A stretch of 64,000 bases of DNA from Escherichia phage myPSH2311. Made by a program: the position numbers and the translations under genes. Positions 2,406 through 56,600 of this stretch are shown piece by piece. The stretch is taken from sequence record MG976803.1; one strand, given 5' to 3'. The notes beneath the pieces were generated by a model, which was not told where the DNA came from, searched no databases, and saw nothing but the letters and a program-made list of their open reading frames with translations. Position 1 is the stretch's first letter; each line of letters starts with the position of its first letter.

Positions 2406-3353
2406 ATGGCTAATCCAACTTTATTTGTATCGTATGACCAGAATGGTAAAAAACTTTCTTTTGCTAACTGGATTTCTGTTCTGTCCCCTCAGGATACCCC
2501 GTTCGTATCTATGACCGGTAAAGAGTCTATCAACCAGACTATCTTTAGCTGGCAGACCGATGCACTGGCAAGCGTTGACAGTAATAACGCACACGTCGAA
2601 GGCTCTCGTGCTGAAGACGGCGAAATGAAACCGACTGTTATCAAATCTAACGTTAATGGTCCTTTGGACGTGGTAACTGATTGCAGTGTCAAGTCTTGGC
2701 ATATGTCCATGTCCATGGCATTAAGCTATAAAGGCGCTTAGACATGCGTATTGCGTCTGAATGACACCCATGCAGCTCGTAAGACTGGTGCATTCCAGTT
2801 CCTGTGTGCTCACGGTGGTCTGGCTGGTGGCGTTGTTGACAAGACCAAGAATGGTCCTGCTGACCCGGACACTGGTGCAGTAACTGTTAAAGTTGCACAG
2901 AATGCTTCTAACCCGACCACTAACATTGGTTTCGACGAAGCTGATATCTTTGATATGACTCTGCAACTGTATACCGCTGGTTCTGAAGCAGATATCATCA
3001 TGATTAACCCGGCTCATGCTAAGATCTTTGCTGGTCTGCAAGAAAATACTCAGGGTTCACGTAAGCGTATCTTTGAGAACACCAAGCAGTTCATCTACGA
3101 AGTTAACAGCATCACTGACCCGCTGGGCCAGAGCTACAAAATCATCGTTAACCGTTGGATGCCTACCGATGCAGTTTACTTCTTCCGTAGCGCTGACTGG
3201 ACCCAGATGGTTCTACGTGCTCCGAAACGTACTGAACTGGCTAAAGACGGTTCTTACGAGAAGTGGATGATTGAAATGGAAGTTGGTCTGCGTCACCGCA
3301 ACCCGTATGCTTCCGGCGTTCTGTTCACTGCTGCGGGAAAGGTGGCGGCGTAA
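2406..3353 (+). CDS. Major capsid protein, interrupted by an in-frame TAG at 2739-2741
   Basis: ORFs 2406-2741 and 2751-3353 are in the same frame separated only by TAG; strong optimal-codon bias; RBS-like AGGAG upstream of 2406; terminator downstream. Confidence 0.6.
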
Positions 3354-3877
3354 CAGTAGACAGTGTGACTGTTAGCCCTGCGTCTTTAGCAAGCCTAGAG
3401 ACAGGGGCTACTCGGCAGTTCACTGCAAGCGCGGAGAAAAGTGATGGTTCTACCGAAACAACTGGCTTTACTTGGTCAGTGACAGGAGGTGGTTCTATCA
3501 CTCAGTCGGGTTTGTATACTGCCCCGAGTGCGTCTCAATCCACTGATGTATCCATTACTGCAACTTTAGAAGGTGTTTCTGGTACAGCAACCATTTCTGA
3601 AATTGTTGCTCCTACTCCTACTATTGTGAGTCGTGGGCCAATTACAGGTAAAGTAGGTGGTACTACCACTAACTTCAACACCATGTTTACTGTAACTAAT
3701 TCTATTGCTGATGATTACACACTTGTTGTAACTCCCGCAGAAGCTGGTACAATAAGCGCTAATAATTCGTTAAAATTAGATGCTGCTGCAAGTGGCGAAG
3801 TTACTGTTCAAGCAAGTTTGACAGCTGACCCGTCCATCAATGCAACATGCACTTTTACTGGTGTAACACCTGCTTAA
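3275..3877 (+). CDS. Ig-like (Big_2-type) domain ORF in -1 frame; probable C-terminal extension of capsid (long form) or decoration protein
   Basis: Translation has Big_2-like pattern (ATRQFTASAEK...TWSVTGGGSITQSGLYTAPSASQSTDVSITATLEGVSG); only start is GTG at 3365; overlaps capsid 3' end. Confidence 0.5.
   Translation, partial: NGSWSASPQPVCFRRSVHCCGKGGGVTVDSVTVSPASLASLETGATRQFTASAEKSDGSTETTGFTWSVTGGGSITQSGLYTAPSASQSTDVSITATLEGVSGTATISEIVAPTPTIVSRGPITGKVGGTTTNFNTMFTVTNSIADDYTLVVTPAEAGTISANNSLKLDAAASGEVTVQASLTADPSINATCTFTGVTPA
3335..3341 (+). other. Candidate programmed -1 ribosomal frameshift slippery heptamer G_GGA_AAG near capsid 3' end
   Basis: GGGAAAG in X_XXY_YYZ register relative to capsid frame, 10 nt before capsid TAA; -1 frame is open from 3275 into Ig-like ORF. 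Confidence 0.5.
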
Positions 3878-3884
3878 AAACTAG

Positions 3885-3912
3885 ACCCTGCCTTCGGGCG
3901 GGGTTTTTTTCG
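3885..3912 (+). terminator. Rho-independent terminator after capsid module
   Basis: ACCCTGCC-TTCG-GGCGGGGT stem-loop followed by T7 run. Confidence 0.7.
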
Positions 3913-3980
3913 TTTTAAGACCTATACAAGCTAGTGTGTAATGTATATTCTTTGTCTACATACAACAAGGAGGACAACCT

Positions 3981-4733
3981 ATGGCGATGCCAGATGTGGC
4001 CTATCCGATTAACACGTATGGCTGGCTTAAGAAAGCTGTTGCCTTGTGGGCCGATCGGGACGATGACGAATTTGTTAATCAAATTCCAAACTTTATTAAC
4101 TTTGCAGAGAAAGAGGTTTATCGTAACTTACGTATTCCTCCTCTGGAAAAAGAAGTGTATTTAGATATTAAAGATGGAGTGGCTTATATTCCTCCTGATT
4201 ACTTAGAAGCTCAATGGATGATGAGATCCAAAGATGGTACAATCTTCCAAGTAACATCTCCTGAGGAGATAAGCTATCGGAGACAGCACGGGGCTATTAA
4301 CTCTTCACATTGGAATAACCAACCTGTTAATTTTGCACGGTTTGGAGCACGTTTCTTATTCTATCCTAGAATAAATGCAGATGTTCCGCATTACCCTGAT
4401 GATGGTAGTCCGATTGTTCCAGCGGAGAGTTCGGTAATCTTGAGTTATTATGCAGATCCTCCAGAATTTCACGAAGATGGTGATACAAGTGCGATTCTTA
4501 CCATTGCACCAGAGCTTCTTTTATATTTTACTCTGAGGCATGCATGTTTATTTGTTCAAGATGATAATGGGGTTCAAAAGTGGTCTGCTTTAGGTAAGGC
4601 TATTCTTGACGAGCTAGTAGAACAGAATAAGAAACAAGAGTACTCAGGTTCACCTATTGCAATTCCGAATAACATGACTCGACTTCAGAGCAGCCTGCCT
4701 GATATTTATGGTATTCGTACTTCTCGTCTATAA
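3981..4733 (+). CDS. Virion structural protein (possible head-tail adaptor or tail protein)
   Basis: 250-aa ORF with AAGGAGGA RBS; position between capsid and tail fibre. Confidence 0.35.
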   Translation: MAMPDVAYPINTYGWLKKAVALWADRDDDEFVNQIPNFINFAEKEVYRNLRIPPLEKEVYLDIKDGVAYIPPDYLEAQWMMRSKDGTIFQVTSPEEISYRRQHGAINSSHWNNQPVNFARFGARFLFYPRINADVPHYPDDGSPIVPAESSVILSYYADPPEFHEDGDTSAILTIAPELLLYFTLRHACLFVQDDNGVQKWSALGKAILDELVEQNKKQEYSGSPIAIPNNMTRLQSSLPDIYGIRTSRL

Positions 4734-4742
4734 GGAGATAAT

Positions 4743-7733
4743 ATGATCGTTTATAACAACCAAGCACCTAAGAATGTTAACAATGTAGGACAATTTGGAG
4801 CTACTGAGGGAACTATTGGTGCTTATAAATCAGCAGCTGAATATGCAGCAGACTCTAAATATTGGGCATTGTTGTCCCAAACTAAATACTCCTCAGTAGA
4901 GGAGATTTTGGCTGAAGTAGAACGTCTGTATGCTCAAGGTCATCTACTGGAAGAAGACATTAAACAACTCAAGAGTGACTTTGAGTCACAAGAACAAGTG
5001 CTCTTAGGTTTGATTCAATCCACAGGAACTGCAATTGACAACACCAATGCAGCAACTGAGCTTTCAAAAGAGGCAACTCAAAACGTTCTAGCACAACTTG
5101 ACATTATCTCTAACATGACAGTTCAAACAACGCTTCTTCCTCCGGGAAGCCTAGCTACGGGGTCTTATGATAATGCAACAGGTGTCTTTGCTTTTGGTAT
5201 TCCAGAAGGTAAACCGGGGCGTGATGGTACTGACGGAACAATCGGTGATATTGGAAGCGTTCCTGTTGGTACCCCTGTTGTTGATGACTATGGTTTCTAT
5301 GTAGATAAAGATGATGGTGGTTTATACCGAGCTGACATGTCAGATATTGCCAACTTGATTCCATCTGTTCGATCTGTTTCAATCAATGGCGGCGCTGAAC
5401 AAACAGGTTCAGTGGTTTTTGATTCTGTCTCCACATTCAATGGACGTAAGGGTGCTGTAGTTCCTGCTACTGGAGACTACACAGCTGCTCAAGTGGGAGC
5501 TTTTAGTGTAACTAATAACCTATCCGAAATAACCGACACAAGTGCAGCTATTACAAATATTGGACTCGCTGAGCATGGGATTGGTAGCCCTACCTTAACC
5601 AAAGTGAAGGCTATGGACTGGCAAACATTTAATTTTGTCAATGGAGGTAACTATTCAGTATTAATGTCGAATATTACAAATGCCCCTGCTGAGATAAATT
5701 ATCCTGCCAATTATGGGTTATATCTTGAAGTCATTGGCGTAGTTACAGGAGGAGGTGAGGTACGAGTGGTGCCAATTGCATTGGGAATCCTCTCAATGGC
5801 ATATTTTCCGCTTGGCCAATGCGCTTATGCCGTGGCAAATGTGCCACAACTGCTGCATTGTGTGTAGCATCGCCAGCTTAGCGCTGCATCAATTGTACCT
5901 ATTACCAAAGGTGGTACAGGAGCTACTTCATCAGAGAATGCTCGACTAGCTCTAGTTGCAGCTAAGAGTGGTGATAACTCTGATATCACCTCGATGACCA
6001 ACAAGGTTACTTTCACACAATCTCCAGTAATTCCTGATGCTGTAGATGATAATGACGCGGTTGCTTTGAGACAGTTGCATACAAGTGAAGCAGATTTGCT
6101 GGCAAGGCTGAAAAGTAGTAATGCAGGTGAAGGTGCATCCCTTATTACCTTTGAAAATGGTAATTCTGTTGAGAGTCTTTCCAGTAAAGATGGGGCTAAA
6201 AACATTGGCAGTGGTGAGAGAAGTTTGCTTGTCCGTAACAACGACATTAAGCATTCAGGAGATTTCCCTACCTTACAAGCTGCGGTAAATGCATCGTTAC
6301 CAAAAAACGACTTAATTGTTTCCCCCGGTGAATACAGTGAAGCGATTACTATTGGTAGTACACAGTTAAAGGGTGTTGGTGGAGCCACGGTACTGAAAGC
6401 TCCGTCAAACTTTACAGACACTATTCAGGTTAAGGCATCTACGCCTCATTGGCAATTCCGCCATAGTGGTGGTTTTGCTATAGATGGTTCTGGGACAACC
6501 GGGGCTGTAGGTATTAGTTTTGACCCGACCGACCAATATGCTGGTCGTCACAACTTTAGTGACGTATACATCCATAACATTAACAAGGCCATTCAGAAAC
6601 CTTCCGGGAATATAGGTAATACATGGAAAGGCATTGGCGTGCAAGGTTGTGACTGGGGTTACTGGGCACAGTCTGCTTCTGAGATGCACTTAGGCTCTGA
6701 CACCCTTCAGAACATGCACTTTGATGGTATTAGCACTTACTGTGTTTACTTGAACGCTACAACAGGAGAAGCGCCTGGTACATTCGGAGGTGGTGTAGGC
6801 GGCTGGTGGATTAAAGATAGTATTATGGAAGCCTCTGGCGGTGGTGGTATTTACCTCAAGAACAAGGATGGTGACTGCCCTACTGCCCCATGTGGTGTAT
6901 CCAATGTATGGATGGAAGCTATCGCTACTACTCCAGCTATTAATGTAGATGGTGTATCTCAGAAGCCTCGTGTCCTTAAACTTATTGATACCAGTATCTT
7001 CTTTGCAGAGTACACATACCTTAATAACGTAGAGCTTCAGAACTCCAACCTTGTTACTTATGGCTGCCGAGTAGATAATTCAGATGGCCACATGGATATC
7101 TCTGTAGATGCCAACAGCAGTTTTGTGGCTGATCAATTGTACCTGAATGGTAGCTCCGGCAAAGATGTAATGGTACGTTCTGTAGCGGCTCAGACAGGCA
7201 AGATTGGGCAAAGCTGGTCACCTAATATGAGTATGCGTGGATACCTGCCGGAAGGATACATCTATCGTGTACCTGGTAATAAGCTGGTAGCTAAACCCTT
7301 CGATGGAGGTACTGCTGAATTTAGTGGTACGGCAAGCAGCACTGGGAGTTTGCAGCCACAAGGCCAGTTATCTCAGAGCTGCATGTACTTCGAAATCCCT
7401 GGTGCTGCTGAGTATGAGCTTACTGGTGCTGCATTTCAGATAACTTCCGGTAACTGGTATGTATGGGGCATTAGCACTGAACTGGTACAGGGAACCCCTA
7501 CAAACTTCCGCATCGGTGGAGATATCAATGTAGGTGAAGTATTTACTAAGGGGGGCCAGTGGGTGAGTACCTTTGGTGTAGCTCAGGCTAGTGCTTCCGG
7601 TTCAGTGAACCTGCGCCTAAGTACAGCCGGTACAGGCGGAGTAGTCCTACGCCTCGCTGATTACTTCGTAGCGGAGTTCACTACTCAGGCAGAGGCTATG
7701 CGCTTCGCTAATAGTAGACGTGCCCTGCGTTAA
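4743..7733 (+). CDS. Tail fibre/tailspike protein with in-frame TAG at 5865-5867; C-terminal part resembles a beta-helix depolymerase domain
   Basis: ORFs 4743-5867 and 5994-7733 share one frame; between TAG and first ATG there is no stop and no ATG/GTG/TTG, yet it encodes a tail-fibre-like PITKGGTGATSSENARLAL motif. Confidence 0.5.
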
Positions 7734-7757
7734 GAGTAATGACATTACTATAAGCAA

Positions 7758-7777
7758 AACCCCGCTTAGGCGGGGTT
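7758..7777 (+). terminator. Hairpin after tail fibre gene (weak terminator candidate)
   Basis: AACCCCGC-TTAG-GCGGGGTT stem-loop; no clean T-tract. Confidence 0.3.
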
Positions 7778-7959
7778 AGCTTCCATAGGGTAGTTGTTTT
7801 CCCTGATGTAGTGGAATTTATCGGAGACAATGAGCTGGCTGCTTTGTTGCATTCTGATAAATAGTTCATAACTCCCCTTCGAGGTCTTTAGTAGTAAGTA
7901 CCTTTAGTAAGTAATGAAACTAATATATCCCAAGAGGTTAATACATAGGAGACAGATAA

Positions 7960-22427: not shown

Positions 22428-23535
22428 ATGGAAGATAAGGGCATATCTAGAGAGGATGCTGAAGCATTTGCTGGTTCCTATATGGATAACCGTTATGCAC
22501 TTCTTGAGAAGCCTATGACTCCTACTGAACATCAGAATGCTCGTTCTCGTATCGAAGCTGATGTTGAGAAGTTTGCTAAGAAGTACGAATCAATGACTCC
22601 TATCGAGAAAGAGATTGTTAAGGTTACTGGAGATACTGAAGGTAAGCTTGATAACTTGGATGCGGATACTAGGAAGGCTATTGAGGAGGCTCAGAAGGTT
22701 GACTCTGATATTAAGAAACTGCAAGAGGAAGAGTTGGAGATGGAGAAGATTCGTTCTGCTCTGCCTGATGATGAAAGATCTCAAGCAAATTCTGATATCT
22801 TGGAAAGCATTAAACAACAGGAAGAGGTCTTTGCTGATAAAGTAGAGAAAGCTTTCTTGAGTGGGAAGAGCTTGGATGAGTTGGCTAGTGTGGCTGAAGT
22901 TTTAGACAGGGTTCATGGTGCAGATAAGGCTGGTAACAACCGTCGCTTTGTACGTGCATTGCAGACTGCTGCTGAAAACAAGAAGAAGTATGGTGATAAT
23001 CCAGTAGCTTGGTTTAGTGCTGATGATTACTCTGCCATTGCTAAACTTGGTGCTTCTTCCGCAGGTGGTAACAAATCCAGAGCACTGGAGAAGATCTTTG
23101 GTTCTACAGCTGAACAGGCTAAGAGTAAGTTGCTTGGTAGGGATGATGTAGCGAAGATGAGACGTGTGATTGAAGAGAACCCTGATATCAAGATTCCTTC
23201 TTACAAGACAGGTCAGGTTTCCAGTCCCAGTCAATGGGCATGCATGGTCCAAAATCGGCCCCTAGGGTAACGTCGGAATCCGGTACGCTTATGCCCCTAA
23301 GTGCATTTTTTTGCTTGGTAGGGATGATGTAGCGAAGATGAGACGTGTGATTGAAGAGAACCCTGATATCAAGATTCCTTCTTACAAGACAACAAATCGT
23401 ACTGAGTACTTGCAGTTCTTGGAGAAGTTTAATGACGAAGGGAAGCCTAAGATTAAACGTGGCTCATTGTCAGAGAAGCTTGAACGCAGTAAGCGTCAAT
23501 CGAGACTCCGTGTAAGAGTTCGACCTAAGGAGTGA
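22428..23535 (+). CDS. Hypothetical late protein, reading frame broken by a 100-bp insert plus 81-bp duplication (23211-23391)
   Basis: ORF 22401-23270 ends inside the GC-rich insert; ORF 23311-23535 restarts with a duplicated LGRDDVAKMRRVIEENPDIKIPSYKT segment. Confidence 0.35.
23211..23310. other. GC-rich insert flanked by 81-bp perfect direct repeats (23130-23210 and 23311-23391)
   Basis: Direct comparison of the two repeat copies; insert has different composition from flanks. Confidence 0.6.
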
Positions 23536-35144: not shown

Positions 35145-36128
35145 TTATGAGCTTAAAGCTCCTTTGCGTGCTCCAGCTGCTTTTCCAGCTCGATCACCAC
35201 TTTTGCCGCCGTTTGAACGGTTTGAGCTGACTGATTCAACACGTAAGTTGCTTGACGCATTAGAGCCTCCAGACTTGACAGCTCGTTTGTGTCCAACGTC
35301 TTTACCTCTGACAGCAGCTTTTCCATCGCGCTTTTCAACGATGCGACGTGCACGGTGGCGCTGAGCATCTCCGCTCTTGCTCCCAATTCCCGTTTCACCG
35401 CGCTTGATCGCAGTCCTTCTTTCTTGTGCATAATCTCTCTTTCCTACATGATCTGCCATTAGATTTCTCCTGTTGGGCAATGACGTTAAACGCCCGTTGT
35501 GGCCCAAAATTGGCGCCCAAAATTGGGGCTTAATGCGTGCGTAATTTTTGGGCCAAATTAAGGCCGTATATAATAACAGCTGAGAGGTTTCTCCCAATCG
35601 AGTCATGATTGAGAAGGCTTCATCTTTAGTGGTGTTCTGGAACTCATCAACAATAACAATAGCATCATTGAAAGAACGACCACGGAGATATTCCAGAGGT
35701 ACAAACTCAATGTTACCATTTCCGATTTGGCATTCATAGAATCCCTTACCATATCGCTGAGTAATAACATCAATGATAGGCATCAGGTAAGGTTCAAACT
35801 TCTCACGCATTCCTCCCGGAAGTAACCCAAGAGAGTTGCCCATGCCGACAGAAGGGCGACTCAGAATGATCTTCTGAATCTTACCGCTCTTCAGTGCATC
35901 AATAACTGTGGAAGTGATTACAAAGGTCTTACCACAGCCCGCAGGAGCGTCTGTGAACACAACTTGTTTAGTCTTAATAGCATTGAGTAGCTCAGACTGA
36001 AACTGGTTCTGAGGGACTACAGGCTTTGCTAAAACCACCTCTTCATACTCTCGCTTACCTTTACGAGTAACAAGTGCTTCCCGACGAAGGTCTTTCCGTG
36101 ATTCTTTCCGTGATTGACGACGACTCAT
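35145..36128 (-). CDS. phoH: PhoH-like ATPase, reading frame runs through a GC-rich insert after the DEFQN motif
   Basis: Walker A APAGCGKT; DEFQNTT...TRLG; downstream translation (LLLYTALIWPKNYARIKPQFW...) is insert-encoded. Confidence 0.5.
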   Translation of the reverse strand: MSRRQSRKESRKDLRREALVTRKGKREYEEVVLAKPVVPQNQFQSELLNAIKTKQVVFTDAPAGCGKTFVITSTVIDALKSGKIQKIILSRPSVGMGNSLGLLPGGMREKFEPYLMPIIDVITQRYGKGFYECQIGNGNIEFVPLEYLRGRSFNDAIVIVDEFQNTTKDEAFSIMTRLGETSQLLLYTALIWPKNYARIKPQFWAPILGHNGRLTSLPNRRNLMADHVGKRDYAQERRTAIKRGETGIGSKSGDAQRHRARRIVEKRDGKAAVRGKDVGHKRAVKSGGSNASSNLRVESVSSNRSNGGKSGDRAGKAAGARKGALSS

Positions 36129-37038: not shown

Positions 37039-37383
37039 TTAACTCTCCAAAGTTTTCTTCAGAGCTGCCCATGAGATTGGGTAGAGCTTAGCCATCTCTT
37101 CATCTACGGATTTAGCAAACACTCGAACTTCATATTGAGCGTGAGATGAGAGTCGCTGACGACACAACTCAAACCAGCCATACAAAGAACCAGTCCACAC
37201 CCACTCAGTGATCATCCCCTGAGGAAGAACAAATCGAGCTTGCTCTGGTGCAATAAATTCAATCAACTTGTCATATGTTGCTAGAGAAGCTTCATATGCA
37301 TCGTTAATCAACATTAATGCTTCAGCTCGTTCTCCGTCGATGAGTTGAATCCCTGAACCTGCATGGTTTGCCCAAAATGGCAT
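37039..37383 (-). CDS. thyX: ThyX, C-terminal half
   Basis: PEQARFVLPQGMITEWVWTGSLYGWFELCRQRLSSHAQYEVR matches ThyX C-terminal helical region. Confidence 0.55.
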   Translation of the reverse strand: MPFWANHAGSGIQLIDGERAEALMLINDAYEASLATYDKLIEFIAPEQARFVLPQGMITEWVWTGSLYGWFELCRQRLSSHAQYEVRVFAKSVDEEMAKLYPISWAALKKTLES

Positions 37384-37451
37384 TGGCGCTATAGCATGGG
37401 GCTTTTTAAATGGCCCCGCGGGTTAATGCTAATGGCGGATTTTGGCCACGG
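37384..37451. other. GC-rich insert splitting thyX into two ORFs in different frames
   Basis: 68 bp between the two ThyX ORFs; composition unlike flanking coding sequence. Confidence 0.55.
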
Positions 37452-37757
37452 TTATGCATGCGTAGGGAGTTCAACTGCTCCATCTTTATACCGCCGGGAC
37501 ATTTCGTTCCACGAGAATCCAACCTGATGCTTGCCCAGCTGTCTCGCAATTGCGATAGGTGCTTTGCATCGGAAACTGACTTGCGGGTGTCGGAATGGAG
37601 TACAGTGTTTTTCCCGTGCAAGGAAGTTGATAAGTTTTGTGTCTCTCTCATTTAAGTCACCTTCTCGAACAACACCGAAAGATACTCTAGCTGCATTGAC
37701 TACAGATTTGTCACTACCCATTGCTTCAATCAGTGTTGCTTGTAGTTGTTCGTTCAA
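37452..37757 (-). CDS. thyX: Flavin-dependent thymidylate synthase ThyX, N-terminal half (gene split)
   Basis: AARVSF...TPFRHPQVSFRCKAPIAIARQ...S(11)...SRRY ThyX-like pattern; ends shortly after SRRY. Confidence 0.55.
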   Translation of the reverse strand: MNEQLQATLIEAMGSDKSVVNAARVSFGVVREGDLNERDTKLINFLAREKHCTPFRHPQVSFRCKAPIAIARQLGKHQVGFSWNEMSRRYKDGAVELPTHA

Positions 37758-38196
37758 TTAAAAGTTCCTTTTTTCGATTCATGTAAACTTGATGAGCTTC
37801 TTCGGCAGTTCCATACATACCTAGATGTATATCTACTTTATCAATACAAATAACAGCCCTATATCTAATAGTCCCTGATTTATATTTGACAACCTTAACA
37901 CCTTGAAGCCCTGTTTCCTTGTTTGATACCCTAGCCCCGAACTGGTTGTGGCAGTTTGTCGAGGTGTCCACCAATCTCAAGTTCTGTATTGAGTTGTTCT
38001 TCTTATTTCTATCGATATGGTCTATCTGAGAAGAAGGCCACTCTCCATAGTAAAAGAACCATGCCACTTTATGAGCTTTGTGTACTTTCCCTTTAAACCG
38101 CAGGGTTATGTACTTACTTCGAGTTCCTCCTAATTTCTTACCTTTTCGAAAGAACTCTCCAGTCTCAGGGATATACTCTAAATCATCGATTAACAT
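37726..38196 (-). CDS. HNH homing-endonuclease-like protein
   Basis: KVHKAHKVAWFFYYGEWPSSQIDHIDRNKKNNSIQNLRLV...NCHNQ HNH-type motif. Confidence 0.55.
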   Translation of the reverse strand: MLIDDLEYIPETGEFFRKGKKLGGTRSKYITLRFKGKVHKAHKVAWFFYYGEWPSSQIDHIDRNKKNNSIQNLRLVDTSTNCHNQFGARVSNKETGLQGVKVVKYKSGTIRYRAVICIDKVDIHLGMYGTAEEAHQVYMNRKKELLIERTTTSNTD

Positions 38197-39322: not shown

Positions 39323-40135
39323 TATTATCCATTACCTGCTGGGTAATTACGATGCAGTTTAGGCATGGTAATGCGTTTAGGCGTCTTGGGGAGGTGCCCC
39401 CAGTTGCAAGCTGATGCTGCGGGTAAATTGGCGCCATGGGAAACGCGTTAATGCGTGCCTGATGTTATCTTTTCTCATGTGTTGCTCAAGATCCCAAACA
39501 ACATGAATAGCCCACATCTTTTTCATTAGTAATGTACCTTTCCGCTGATATAAACACGACCAGAAGAATACTCCTTGGCCTTATGGATGCTGATACTATT
39601 AACCACGTCACCAGTAAGCATAGTCTTTTTAAAATCTCGAGCTTGTTGACGAGTAGGGAGTGCAGTCATAGTCATACCACCTGATGCCCACTTAATCTTC
39701 GCTAACCAGAATTTTCTCATAGTGATTGGTCTCATTAGTAATAAACCTTACTGTTGACACAAAAAGCACCTTCACTATTCACGATAGCTTTTCCTAATGT
39801 AACCTTGTTAAGTCTAAAAGTAGACTTGTATTGGTTTTTGACCCTACGTGCGTGCTCTCGAGTATTAACAAAATCTACAGCTACTAACTCTCCAGTCGTG
39901 TTATCATGTACACGAACAATCCACTTTTTCATTTTACTAAACCCTTCATGTAGTCATAAAGATCATTAGAAGCTTTACCCCATTCAAGGTGCTTCTTATC
40001 CATATAACGCTTACAGACTTCTTTATTACCTTCATCACAAGTATCAAATCGATGACATGCCCGACCAAATACCATTGCTTTTAACTGAGCATCAGTAGTT
40101 AAATATTTAAGTTCTTGAAACTCTTCTTTATTCAT

Positions 40136-44590: not shown

Positions 44591-45214
44591 TTAAATACTT
44601 GGCTTCAAGTCTCCGAAGAGCCATGTGGCAATTTTATCTTGTTCTTCGTCGATATGATAAATCCAAGCGATAACAGTTTCACCTGAGTCCATCTTAACAG
44701 CAATCTGAGTACGCTGATAGAAGCTGTCTTCAGGGCTACGTTTGTTGTAACCTTCCAGACGGTCATACGGACCTTCCAGACCTGCTTTGTCAGTAGCAAA
44801 CACTTCTACACGAACAGGCTTGTTGTTATTGCTGTGTGCGAGAGAGATGCTCGGGAAGTAGGAACCACCGTAACGGAACAGATCAAAGTTGTCTAATGGG
44901 CCGTTTTATGCGGTTTAAAGGCCTTGACCAGTGCATTTGCCCGTTAAATGGCGTGGGGATTTCCCAGTGCGGGTGGCCAGTAAACGTGTTTTGTCTTTGT
45001 CAGTAGCAAACACTTCTACACGAACAGGCTTGTTGTTATTGCTGTGTGCGAGAGAGATGCTCGGGAAGTAGGAACCACCGTAACGGAACAGATCAAAGTT
45101 GTCTTCAGTCCAACCTTCACCAATTGACTTAGCACCAGCTCGGTCATTAACTAAATAGTTAGCTTGACCACGACGAAGAGAACCATAAGTTGCTACGTAA
45201 ATTACTTCTGACAT
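44591..45214 (-). CDS. Gamma-glutamyl cyclotransferase (AIG2/GGCT)-like protein, interrupted by 100-bp insert with 110-bp flanking direct repeats
   Basis: N-terminus MSEVIYVATYGSLRRGQAN resembles YGSL...G GGCT signature; ORFs 44915-45214 and 44591-44803 join if 44895-45104 is removed. Confidence 0.45.
44895..44994. other. GC-rich insert flanked by 110-bp perfect direct repeats (44785-44894 and 44995-45104)
   Basis: Exact repeat verified by reading both copies. Confidence 0.6.
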
Positions 45215-45478: not shown

Positions 45479-46880
45479 TTACTCTGTAATAAAGATTTTG
45501 ATTACACCACAGATTGCTGCACTCTCAAATACTGCAACAGCTTCACTCCCCTGAAAGAAGGCCACTTTGCCGTCAGAGAAGTTAAACATGTCAGCATCTA
45601 GGTCCATAGCTCGCATATCACCAGCGTCGTTAGTATCTTTAAACAGAACTTTATACTTATTCACAGATAGGTCACTCCTTTGTCTTGTTGTGCTTCAGAG
45701 ATGATACGTTCTACACATTCCATAGAATACTTATCACCACGTTTCAGGAAAGTCACAATTGCAGAGAATTGATTACCAATCATTCGCTGATTAGTAATAC
45801 CCCACTCCTCACACAACTTACGCAACTCTTTACGAGAGCCTACAATCAGAGGCTCTTTTTGTTCCATCATTCCATTTTGTACTAGATCTTCCAATGAAAA
45901 CATATCCATATATCCTTAGTAGTTTACAACAGTGCCATCGTTCAGGGTAAGGCTATTAATCTGCAACACACGACCAAGCTGACGATCACTAATTGGTGCG
46001 TTCCATCCAGAGCGGTAGAAGTTACGACCACAGAAGAACAAGATCACATTACTTGCTACAGTCGAACCGTTTTCAGGATGCTTGATGTTAGCGATATAAT
46101 AACCACGACGCAGATTACGACGGGTTACAGGGTTGATCTCTAACCCTTGCTCTTCAACTTGCATTGTTTCAGGAACAGGTTCCGAAGATTCTTCAGCAAC
46201 TGGCTCGGAGCTTTCCACTGACAGTGCGTAATCCTCATCACCTGCTGGTGAAAATGTTTCTTCCACTTCTTCAACAGGAAGTTCGTATGCAACACGATAG
46301 TCAGGCTCAACACCAGAGAAGCTCTTAACAAACTCAACAATATTGTGAGTATAGGTTTCCAGAGTTGTTCCAGTCAGTCCCGGAGCTGTGTTAACTTCCA
46401 GAACCCAAGCGTTAGTATTTTTACTAATCAGGTCAACAGCACCAAAGTTCAAACCCAGAGCAGATACAGCTTTGTGAGCTTGAATCAAAACCTGATCAGG
46501 AGGCGCATCTTGGAAGTTTGAGGAATAAACCCAACCAGTGTGATGATTTCGAACGTCTTCACGATAGGAAGGATCTTCACGGTAACCATTACGACGAATC
46601 TTCTTCTGAACGTAAGTGATAACACCTTCGAATACATGAACACGCCATTCACGATTGGTGAACGATAAGGGAAAGGTCCTTGGCCATAGCGTGGCGTATG
46701 CATGCATGCATGCATAAATTGCGTGTTTTGGGCGCGGTGAACGACTGTTAAAGTGTTAGCTTGACCACGACGAAGAGAACCATAAGTTGCTACGTAAATT
46801 ACTTCTGACATTATCTATACCTTTGTTGGTTTGTTTAGTTTATCCGAACTAGCCTCCTCTTTCGAAGAGGCTAAAGCAGA
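45479..46880 (-). repeat. Tandem repeat unit 3: truncated ATP-grasp copy (45916-46707), 82-aa ORF (45661-45909), 61-aa ORF (45479-45664), plus GC-rich junction and GGCT-start fragment
   Basis: Near-identical to units at 46881-48246 and 48247-49904; truncated copy begins exactly at codons REWRVHV. Confidence 0.7.
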
Positions 46881-55338: not shown

Positions 55339-56600
55339 ACATCCTCCAATTAATTGTTAAAACTATCAGGGGAGAACACTAGCTCTGGGCCACGCTGTAG
55401 ATATCGGCCTACCTTCCACAGCTAATCAGCTAATATACTCCCCTAATAGTTTATGAATAGGGGGAGGGGACGAATCCTCCCTTATCCTATTAGTTAATAT
55501 TGCATGTAAGATCTAACAATCGGTTGCCTTTGTAGGAATAAGCGTAAAGCCAATCCAGCACTAAACTCCCGCCCCCTTAGTGGGCTGGGTTATTAAAGGG
55601 TAACGCCCTTATGGGCTAGTTACATGAATGTTAGTTTGATAGGAGATCTGAAGTCCTATCTCAAAGGACTCTCGTAAGAATCCTTCACGATATTACTTAT
55701 TCATCTCTCGTCGGCTATCTCTCCAAGCCAACCAAGTGTAGGTTTTCAGTTCTTCAAAGTCTTCTGGAGAGAATAGATACTCTTTGAAGGTGTTCCCAAA
55801 CCACTCTAAAAATTCTTCAGTCATGAGTCCTCATACAGTGATCTGAGTCGTTTGAACGAGCTGAGTTTCAGGAGCTTCTGAGTCATGCCAGGATGTCGTA
55901 GTCGTGATGTTTTTAGTGAGGACCAATTCAGAACTTACGAGCACCACAGCAAGGAGAGTTGACATAAGAGTAACCAGCTTGTGTATTCTTGATTGTTTGC
56001 TTAGACATTTGAGCTTCCTCTTGTTAGTTTAGGTAAACCACCCCAATCACTGCTGCACTCATTCATGTGGAATGCAGATGGGAAAAGTAATTAAAGGTGA
56101 TTTACCTAAAACAACAAAGGCCACCCGAAGCCAGCTAAGCTACTGACATTGCATGAATCCAAAAGCCTTCCAGTTTCAGAGCACCATTAGCTACTGCATC
56201 CATACGTTCAGGGCGGTTCATACGTTTGGTTGATACTTTCATACCTATCTCTCTTTGTTAGTGGAGGCATTATTGCCAGTTGATATAAGGGATAGCCCTA
56301 GTCAGTAGACTAATCCTGACCGCGTACTCATTGCCGACCTTCTCTGCCTAAGAGTTCAGGTTCTAGAGCTATCTCTTATTCCAACTGGTGAAGACTCCCT
56401 ACCCCTAGGAAGTCTCCTGAATCCCAAACTAATACGTACCCCTACATATCAGAAAGTCTTTCGAAAATTAACAGGTTTTAGTCTAGCACCGGATGTTCGA
56501 GCAAGCTCTCCCTAGCGGTGTGGCATATGCCTGAATTAATAAGTTAATGAGGAACACCCTCACATAGCCCTCTGATAAACACAAGGGCTATAAGTCGATG

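Follow-up and report, generated by a model that had tools for sequence, protein, structure and literature searches.

The window, that is, the whole 64,000-nt stretch of Escherichia phage myPSH2311 (MG976803.1) that was analysed, contains a region with approximately 99.6% identity to Escherichia phage ES17 (genus Kuravirus, subfamily Gordonclarkvirinae) and 95-99% identity to dozens of phiEco32-like coliphages. The gene order in this region was portal, scaffold, major capsid protein (MCP) and adaptor, as in ES17, and the Pfam profiles SU10_MCP and SU10_adaptor were both matched. Genes, signals and hairpins described here lie on the plus strand unless stated otherwise. The authentic 5' segment of the MCP gene (codons 1-83) occupies 2406-2655, which corresponds to 7630-7879 of ES17 and to positions 6-79 of the SU10_MCP profile. 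It is followed by a 99-nt filler (2656-2754) with a stop codon at 2739-2741, which replaces 210 nt (70 codons) of the gene. The 3' part of the gene continues in the 0 frame at 2755-3353 (residues 155-352, ending in ...FTAAGKVAA); it matched SU10_MCP with E = 2.9e-34 and shared 197 of 198 residues with the major head protein of SU10 (PDB 7Z45). The open reading frame at 2751-3353, which the original prediction had taken as the capsid gene, does encode capsid protein but is incomplete, as it covers merely the C-terminal 199 residues of the 352-aa MCP. The block 2755-5774, which holds the slip site described below, is intact and 99.8% identical to ES17. The capsid-to-tail-fibre region was also 99.9-100% identical to a 25-kb record, MZ417522.1 ('Mycolicibacterium phage J1', UNVERIFIED, placed under Microviridae), which is evidently mislabelled or contaminated.

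Alignment of the window against ES17 revealed about 30 breakpoints, many of them bridged by segments of approximately 100 nt, including those at 2656-2754, 5775-5883, 23211-23310, 35473-35574, 37367-37466, 39360-39459, 44895-44994 and 55837-55936. These fillers had a GC content above that of the genome and odd motifs (e.g., ATGCATGCATGCATGCA near 46700), matched nothing in ES17, in one another or in the phage collection, and stood in for ES17 stretches of different, mostly greater, length. Two genes, encoding the MCP (2656-2754) and a tail fibre (5775-5883), are split by them. The filler within the MCP gene aligned to the 210 nt of ES17 that it replaces with a score equal to the shuffle mean, and it had no match in the phage collection. 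An intron, intein or mobile insert was considered for the split capsid frame and rejected, since the filler is unlike the DNA that it replaces, is unmatched, represents one of about 30 breakpoints and is odd in composition and motifs. The fillers look like an artefact rather than biology. As the MCP gene is interrupted in the window, a full-length capsid fusion could not be produced from the exact sequence given.

Near its end, the MCP frame reads TTC ACT GCT GCG GGA AAG GTG GCG GCG TAA, with the stop codon at 3351-3353. The slippery heptamer G_GGA_AAG (3335-3341) lies in register with this frame and is the slip site named in PMC4281155, PMC9965538 and PMC7881722. It has the in-register X_XXY_YYZ form of a tandem slip site, and a recount placed it 9 nt (3342-3350) before the TAA, in keeping with the GGGAAAG originally predicted in this register shortly before the capsid stop. 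The -1 frame is free of stops from 3275, directly after a TGA at 3272-3274, to a TAA at 3875-3877; it overlaps the end of the MCP gene and reaches far past the 0-frame stop without a conserved start signal. The earlier claim that this frame opens at 3275 could be verified on the sequence in both coordinates and frame. Tandem slippage predicts the junction ...FTAAGK|GGGVTVDSVTVSP..., which agrees with the junction peptide proposed previously (...FTAAGK|GGGVTVDSV...). The predicted tryptic peptide GGGVTVDSVTVSPASLASLETGATR is encoded 5' of the annotated GTG start, so that a frameshift product would be its sole possible source.

The number of GGGAAAG copies in the window was not enriched (11, compared to 7.0 +/- 2.5 expected), and register, position and conservation were therefore taken as evidence instead of frequency. 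In-register X_XXA_AAG motifs were rare, with four in 16,696 codon positions of long open stretches, and the chance expectation within the 26-codon overlap was approximately 0.006. Stop-codon readthrough was rejected, as the TAA of the 0 frame is followed by a TAG two codons on. A further in-register motif, A_AAA_AAG on the minus strand (~37768-37774), sits 15 codons before the end of an HNH endonuclease ORF and was set aside as a chance occurrence, as its -1 frame shuts after six codons.

Downstream of the slip site, the -1 frame encodes an extension of 178 codons (3341-3877 including its stop codon; 17.5 kDa), the protein product of which is identical to that of ES17. An intrinsic terminator lies right after it at 3883-3916, the same place at which one is annotated in the SU10 record. 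The AlphaFold model of the extension, built with 22 homologues, had a pLDDT of 93.9 and revealed two beta-sandwich domains. The first, a Big_2-like Ig-like domain with strands at residues 8-87, is encoded at 3356-3595, and the second, also Ig-like, at 3620-3868. A sequence search of the PDB with the extension returned no matches and a fold search was used instead; Foldseek placed the tandem Big domains of LigA from Leptospira first (E = 3e-10), and numerous tandems of Ig type came next. With the Pfam profile Big_2, the extension of the window itself stayed below threshold (E = 0.0067; 16.8 bits, the cut-off being 22.8), while the homologous extensions of YF01, Bas87, Privateer and the metagenomic contig L007 scored above the cut-off. 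The model thus confidently predicts two tandem bacterial Ig-like domains. Of the single Big_2-like domain proposed earlier, the Ig-like fold stood, whereas the number of domains had to be raised to two and the Big_2 assignment stayed sub-threshold here. On the intact ES17 gene, the products would be an MCP of 352 aa (38.6 kDa) and a predicted fusion of 527 aa (55.8 kDa), sizes which agree with the 38.5 and 55.4 kDa forms listed by the proteomic analysis of SU10 (PMC4281155).

Conservation was assessed in 16 Gordonclarkvirinae loci and in a wider set of 20 distinct sequences, which included metagenomic ones. GGGAAAG located 9-12 nt before the MCP stop, combined with a -1 ORF of 180-545 codons, was present at 15 of the 16 loci; the slip site and the -1 ORF are conserved among the relatives, with the ORF lost solely in SU10. 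The triplets GCG-GGA-AAG were kept 9-15 nt before the MCP stop in all 20 distinct sequences (15 nt in Bas93), and the three synonymous positions within them were invariant. Codons near the heptamer varied synonymously (CCG/CCA/CCT, TCC/TCT, GGC/GGT/GGA, GTT/GTA/GTC/GTG and ACT/ACC). The heptamer and the ORF persist in lineages down to approximately 80% nucleotide identity, together with domain swapping and expansion of the ORF to as many as 545 codons, a persistence that indicates continued selection. A pattern scan of metagenomes returned 120 loci, of which five were Kuravirus-like and the rest chance matches, and added little diversity.

Comparable arrangements could be found in more distant relatives. 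In Privateer, G_GGA_AAG abuts the MCP stop, while PJNS034 carries the slip motif C_CCA_AAA at 3381-3387. Three IMG/VR contigs (L007-L009; ~3008-3040) and Aeromonas phage LAh_9 (~3401-3412) have just an A_AAG motif (GTA_AAG), and in the three contigs a GC-rich hairpin follows 6 nt 3' of the motif, with z = -4.3 to -4.9 in L007 and L009. In Privateer, PJNS034, L007-L009 and LAh_9 alike, a -1 ORF with Big_2 or I-set/Ig_3 domains comes after the MCP. None of the records of PJNS034, L007-L009 and LAh_9 annotates a frameshift. A different layout was observed in Salmonella phage 7-11 (2284-5060) and Cronobacter phage GAP52 (2281-4418), which have tandem MCP genes with 72-74% identity and no -1 ORF. 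The second MCP gene of each is an in-frame fusion to Big_2 (SU10_MCP and Big_2 in one ORF) and is separated from the first gene by a hairpin with a T-run that resembles a terminator. The level of the minor MCP-Ig protein in these two phages is apparently set by transcription and not by recoding. Such single-ORF fusions are strong evidence that the MCP-Ig protein is the functional product.

An alternative reading is that the Ig-like protein is made independently from the GTG at 3365-3367 and serves as an unattached decoration or a minor capsid protein, with the heptamer being incidental. This GTG is the first in-frame start of the -1 ORF and a legal start codon; a separate 'Ig domain containing protein' CDS begins there in ES17, phiEco32 and other records, a separate CDS is the annotation in most GenBank/RefSeq entries, and the structural study of SU10 (PMC9509320) considers that gp10 could be a minor capsid protein in its own right. 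However, the 20 nt located 5' of the GTG (GCGGCGTAACAGTAGACAGT) hold no Shine-Dalgarno match, which bears out the original remark that the GTG has no convincing ribosome binding site, and the codon is not conserved. The equivalent codon is GTA in YF01, EP335, KBNP1711, ECBP2, Bas87, Bas88, TH42, NC-B and Bas86, ATA in NJ01 and XT32, and CTA in SU10, so that most divergent relatives have no GTG there and still keep the ORF and the -1 peptide upstream of it. The stretch from the heptamer to 3365 is conserved as a protein of the -1 frame (GKG[GS]G-VTVD[ST]), and the indels within it, directly 3' of the heptamer in YF01, NJ01, XT32, EP335, NC-B, Bas86, meta67 and meta68, are only multiples of 3 nt. 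In phages without the GTG, annotators were left with internal ATGs, at the cost of part of domain 1; in the window, the further in-frame starts (GTG 3479, TTG 3512, GTG 3626 and ATG 3683) all fall within the folded domains. The MCP-Ig proteins that 7-11 and GAP52 encode as single ORFs also argue against a free protein. The GTG at 3365 is probably not a real start, and independent synthesis of the Ig-like protein is an improbable account of the locus.

The loss in SU10 bears on a second alternative. In the deposited SU10 sequence, the -1 frame is closed after 13 codons, and the locus at 2092-2118 (window 3351-3374) differs by a cluster of three changes, one of them a +1 insertion, through which the imperfect palindrome TAACAGTAGACAGTGTGACTGTTA has become a perfect inverted repeat of 12 bp, TAACAGTAGACA-C-TGTCTACTGTTA. 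Such a pattern is characteristic of mutation by template switching (quasipalindrome mutation). As the changes close the -1 frame, the long capsid isoform would be lost in SU10. The cryo-EM head of SU10 revealed no Ig density (PMC9509320) and no extended band was observed (PMC9965538); the truncation of the -1 frame explains heads without Ig density, in line with a remark in PMC9965538. The site in the window could likewise be a decaying remnant, with the frameshift inactive or its product not incorporated, as is apparently the case in SU10, which is viable even though the long -1 ORF is lost (PMC9965538) and whose heads lack the density. Against this, the extension of the window is intact, encodes the same protein as that of ES17 and folds confidently in the model, and the heptamer and ORF have been retained across divergent lineages through domain swapping and expansion; decay is thus very unlikely. 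That the heptamer lies beside an unrelated downstream gene by chance, as its lack of enrichment over the whole window might allow, can be dismissed given the low in-register expectation, the invariance of the heptamer across the subfamily and the frameshift published for relatives.

Two hairpins could be predicted 3' of the heptamer. Hairpin 1 (3347-3377; GGC-G-UAACAGU / ACUGUUA-GCC, with a core stem of 3351-3357/3368-3374) starts 5-9 nt after the heptamer, which is the canonical spacing, and is the best-placed candidate stimulator. All seven of its core pairs were invariant in 15 sequences, and covariation is therefore uninformative either way. Hairpin 2 (3375-3408; outer stem 3375-3379/3404-3408, inner stem 3382-3389/3395-3402) begins about 32-33 nt after the heptamer. 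Among the same number of sequences, its pair 3385/3399 was UA, AU and GC in five each and hence paired in 15/15, and its pair 3386/3398 was GC in 11, UG in three and unpaired in one, in a sample that covers about five lineages. Some of the compensatory changes alter amino acids of Ig domain 1. The covariation of hairpin 2 is genuine, but the helix lies farther from the heptamer than a classical stimulator would. In the window, the fold 3' of the heptamer was not significantly more stable than shuffled sequences (z = -0.8 to -1.8; fold tests to -2.6). No upstream Shine-Dalgarno-like sequence was present near the slip site, and an Rfam search of 3200-4000 found no family, with two sub-threshold sRNA matches near the terminator being rejected. 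The stem-loop proposed for SU10 in PMC4281155 holds the heptamer in its loop and consequently cannot be a downstream barrier. It is conceivable, if rather unlikely, that the conserved hairpin pair 3' of the heptamer represents an undescribed frameshift stimulator.

Taken together, the locus is with high probability the programmed -1 ribosomal frameshift of the phiEco32-like (Kuravirus/Gordonclarkvirinae) phages, which joins an Ig-like extension to the MCP; the minor C-terminally extended capsid form that had been predicted is supported by comparative, structural and published evidence. Most ribosomes would stop at the TAA after GCG GGA AAG GTG GCG GCG and release the 352-aa MCP. In a minority, tRNA-Gly (on GGA) and tRNA-Lys (on AAG) would move back by one base and pair anew with GGG and AAA, and these ribosomes would read a further 178 codons of the -1 frame, starting at 3341, yielding a protein of approximately 56 kDa that consists of the MCP and two Ig-like domains. 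This minor form would co-assemble into the prolate head and display the Ig-like domains on its surface. By analogy with its relatives, slippage is expected to occur in the phage of the window, and both the surface display of the domains and an adhesive role for them are likewise presumed from relatives. The efficiency would presumably be a few per cent, after lambda G/GT (~3.5%) and T7 10B (~10%), as quoted in PMC9965538.

Earlier papers have already described the frameshift in phiEco32, SU10, Privateer and YF01, and the locus holds nothing new for recoding biology. In 2014, PMC4281155 described GGGAAAG in CDS9 of SU10 as the site where the MCP is joined to the Ig-like CDS10, 'as in phiEco32'. 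For Privateer, PMC7881722 (2021) reported two gel bands and detection of the minor capsid protein by mass spectrometry, and a passage in that paper states that both capsid forms were seen in phiEco32 and SU10. PMC9965538 (2023) described the frameshift for YF01 and the whole group. The joined CDS is annotated in the YF01 and Privateer records, while ES17, phiEco32 and most other records have a separate Ig protein CDS. These published cases (phiEco32 gp11-gp12, SU10 CDS9+10, YF01 gp8 and Privateer) share with the window the same gene, the GGGAAAG heptamer, its position near the MCP stop, the -1 direction and an Ig-like extension, and the slip region of phiEco32 differs from that of the window by one base in the 100 nt compared. 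Nothing substantial separates the window from the phiEco32-like group, in which the extension spans 180-545 codons and is lost in SU10, and in which the join is unannotated in ES17.

The comparisons with lambda G/GT, for the same heptamer, and with T7 10A/10B, for the same logic, that accompanied the original prediction were apt. Lambda G/GT has the identical G_GGA_AAG, is translated in E. coli and uses a low-level -1 shift that fixes the ratio of short to long product. However, the lambda gene encodes a tail chaperone, an unrelated protein, and GT is an assembly factor absent from the virion, whereas the long form in the window would be structural; the slip site of the window belongs to the MCP gene of a podovirus and not to a tail assembly chaperone gene between those of the tail tube and tape measure. 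In T7/T3 gene 10A/10B, a -1 shift near the end of the MCP gene likewise gives a minor, C-terminally extended subunit displayed on the head, but the slip site and the MCP family are different, and the T7 extension has about 50 aa compared to 178 aa in the window. Phages 7-11 and GAP52 also have a second capsid subunit species with a C-terminal Big_2, although it derives from a paralogous gene without recoding and its ratio is presumably transcriptional. T4 Hoc and other Ig-like capsid decorations similarly expose Ig-like domains on the head; Hoc, however, is made as a protein of its own and attaches to completed capsids, whereas in the window the domains would be a covalent part of some MCP subunits.

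Ig-like domains on phage heads have reportedly been proposed to bind carbohydrates weakly, by Fraser et al. in 2006 and in the bacteriophage-adherence-to-mucus model. ES17 is reported to home to intestinal mucin and heparan sulfate, a property that PMC7885116 ascribes to the tail fibre and contrasts with the Ig-domain mucus model. Despite this attribution of mucin binding to the tail fibre, ES17 does encode the capsid Ig extension. It is conceivable, if rather unlikely, that part of this mucus adherence is due to MCP-Ig subunits on the head of ES17, made by the unannotated frameshift. The gain from the present analysis is a correction of annotation: the records of ES17, phiEco32 and most Kuraviruses give a free Ig protein whose start is placed at a questionable GTG or an internal ATG, while the real product of the Kuravirus Ig ORF is almost certainly a long isoform of the MCP. 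This correction touches proteomic databases, structural models of the capsid and capsid-display engineering of phages that are candidates for therapy.
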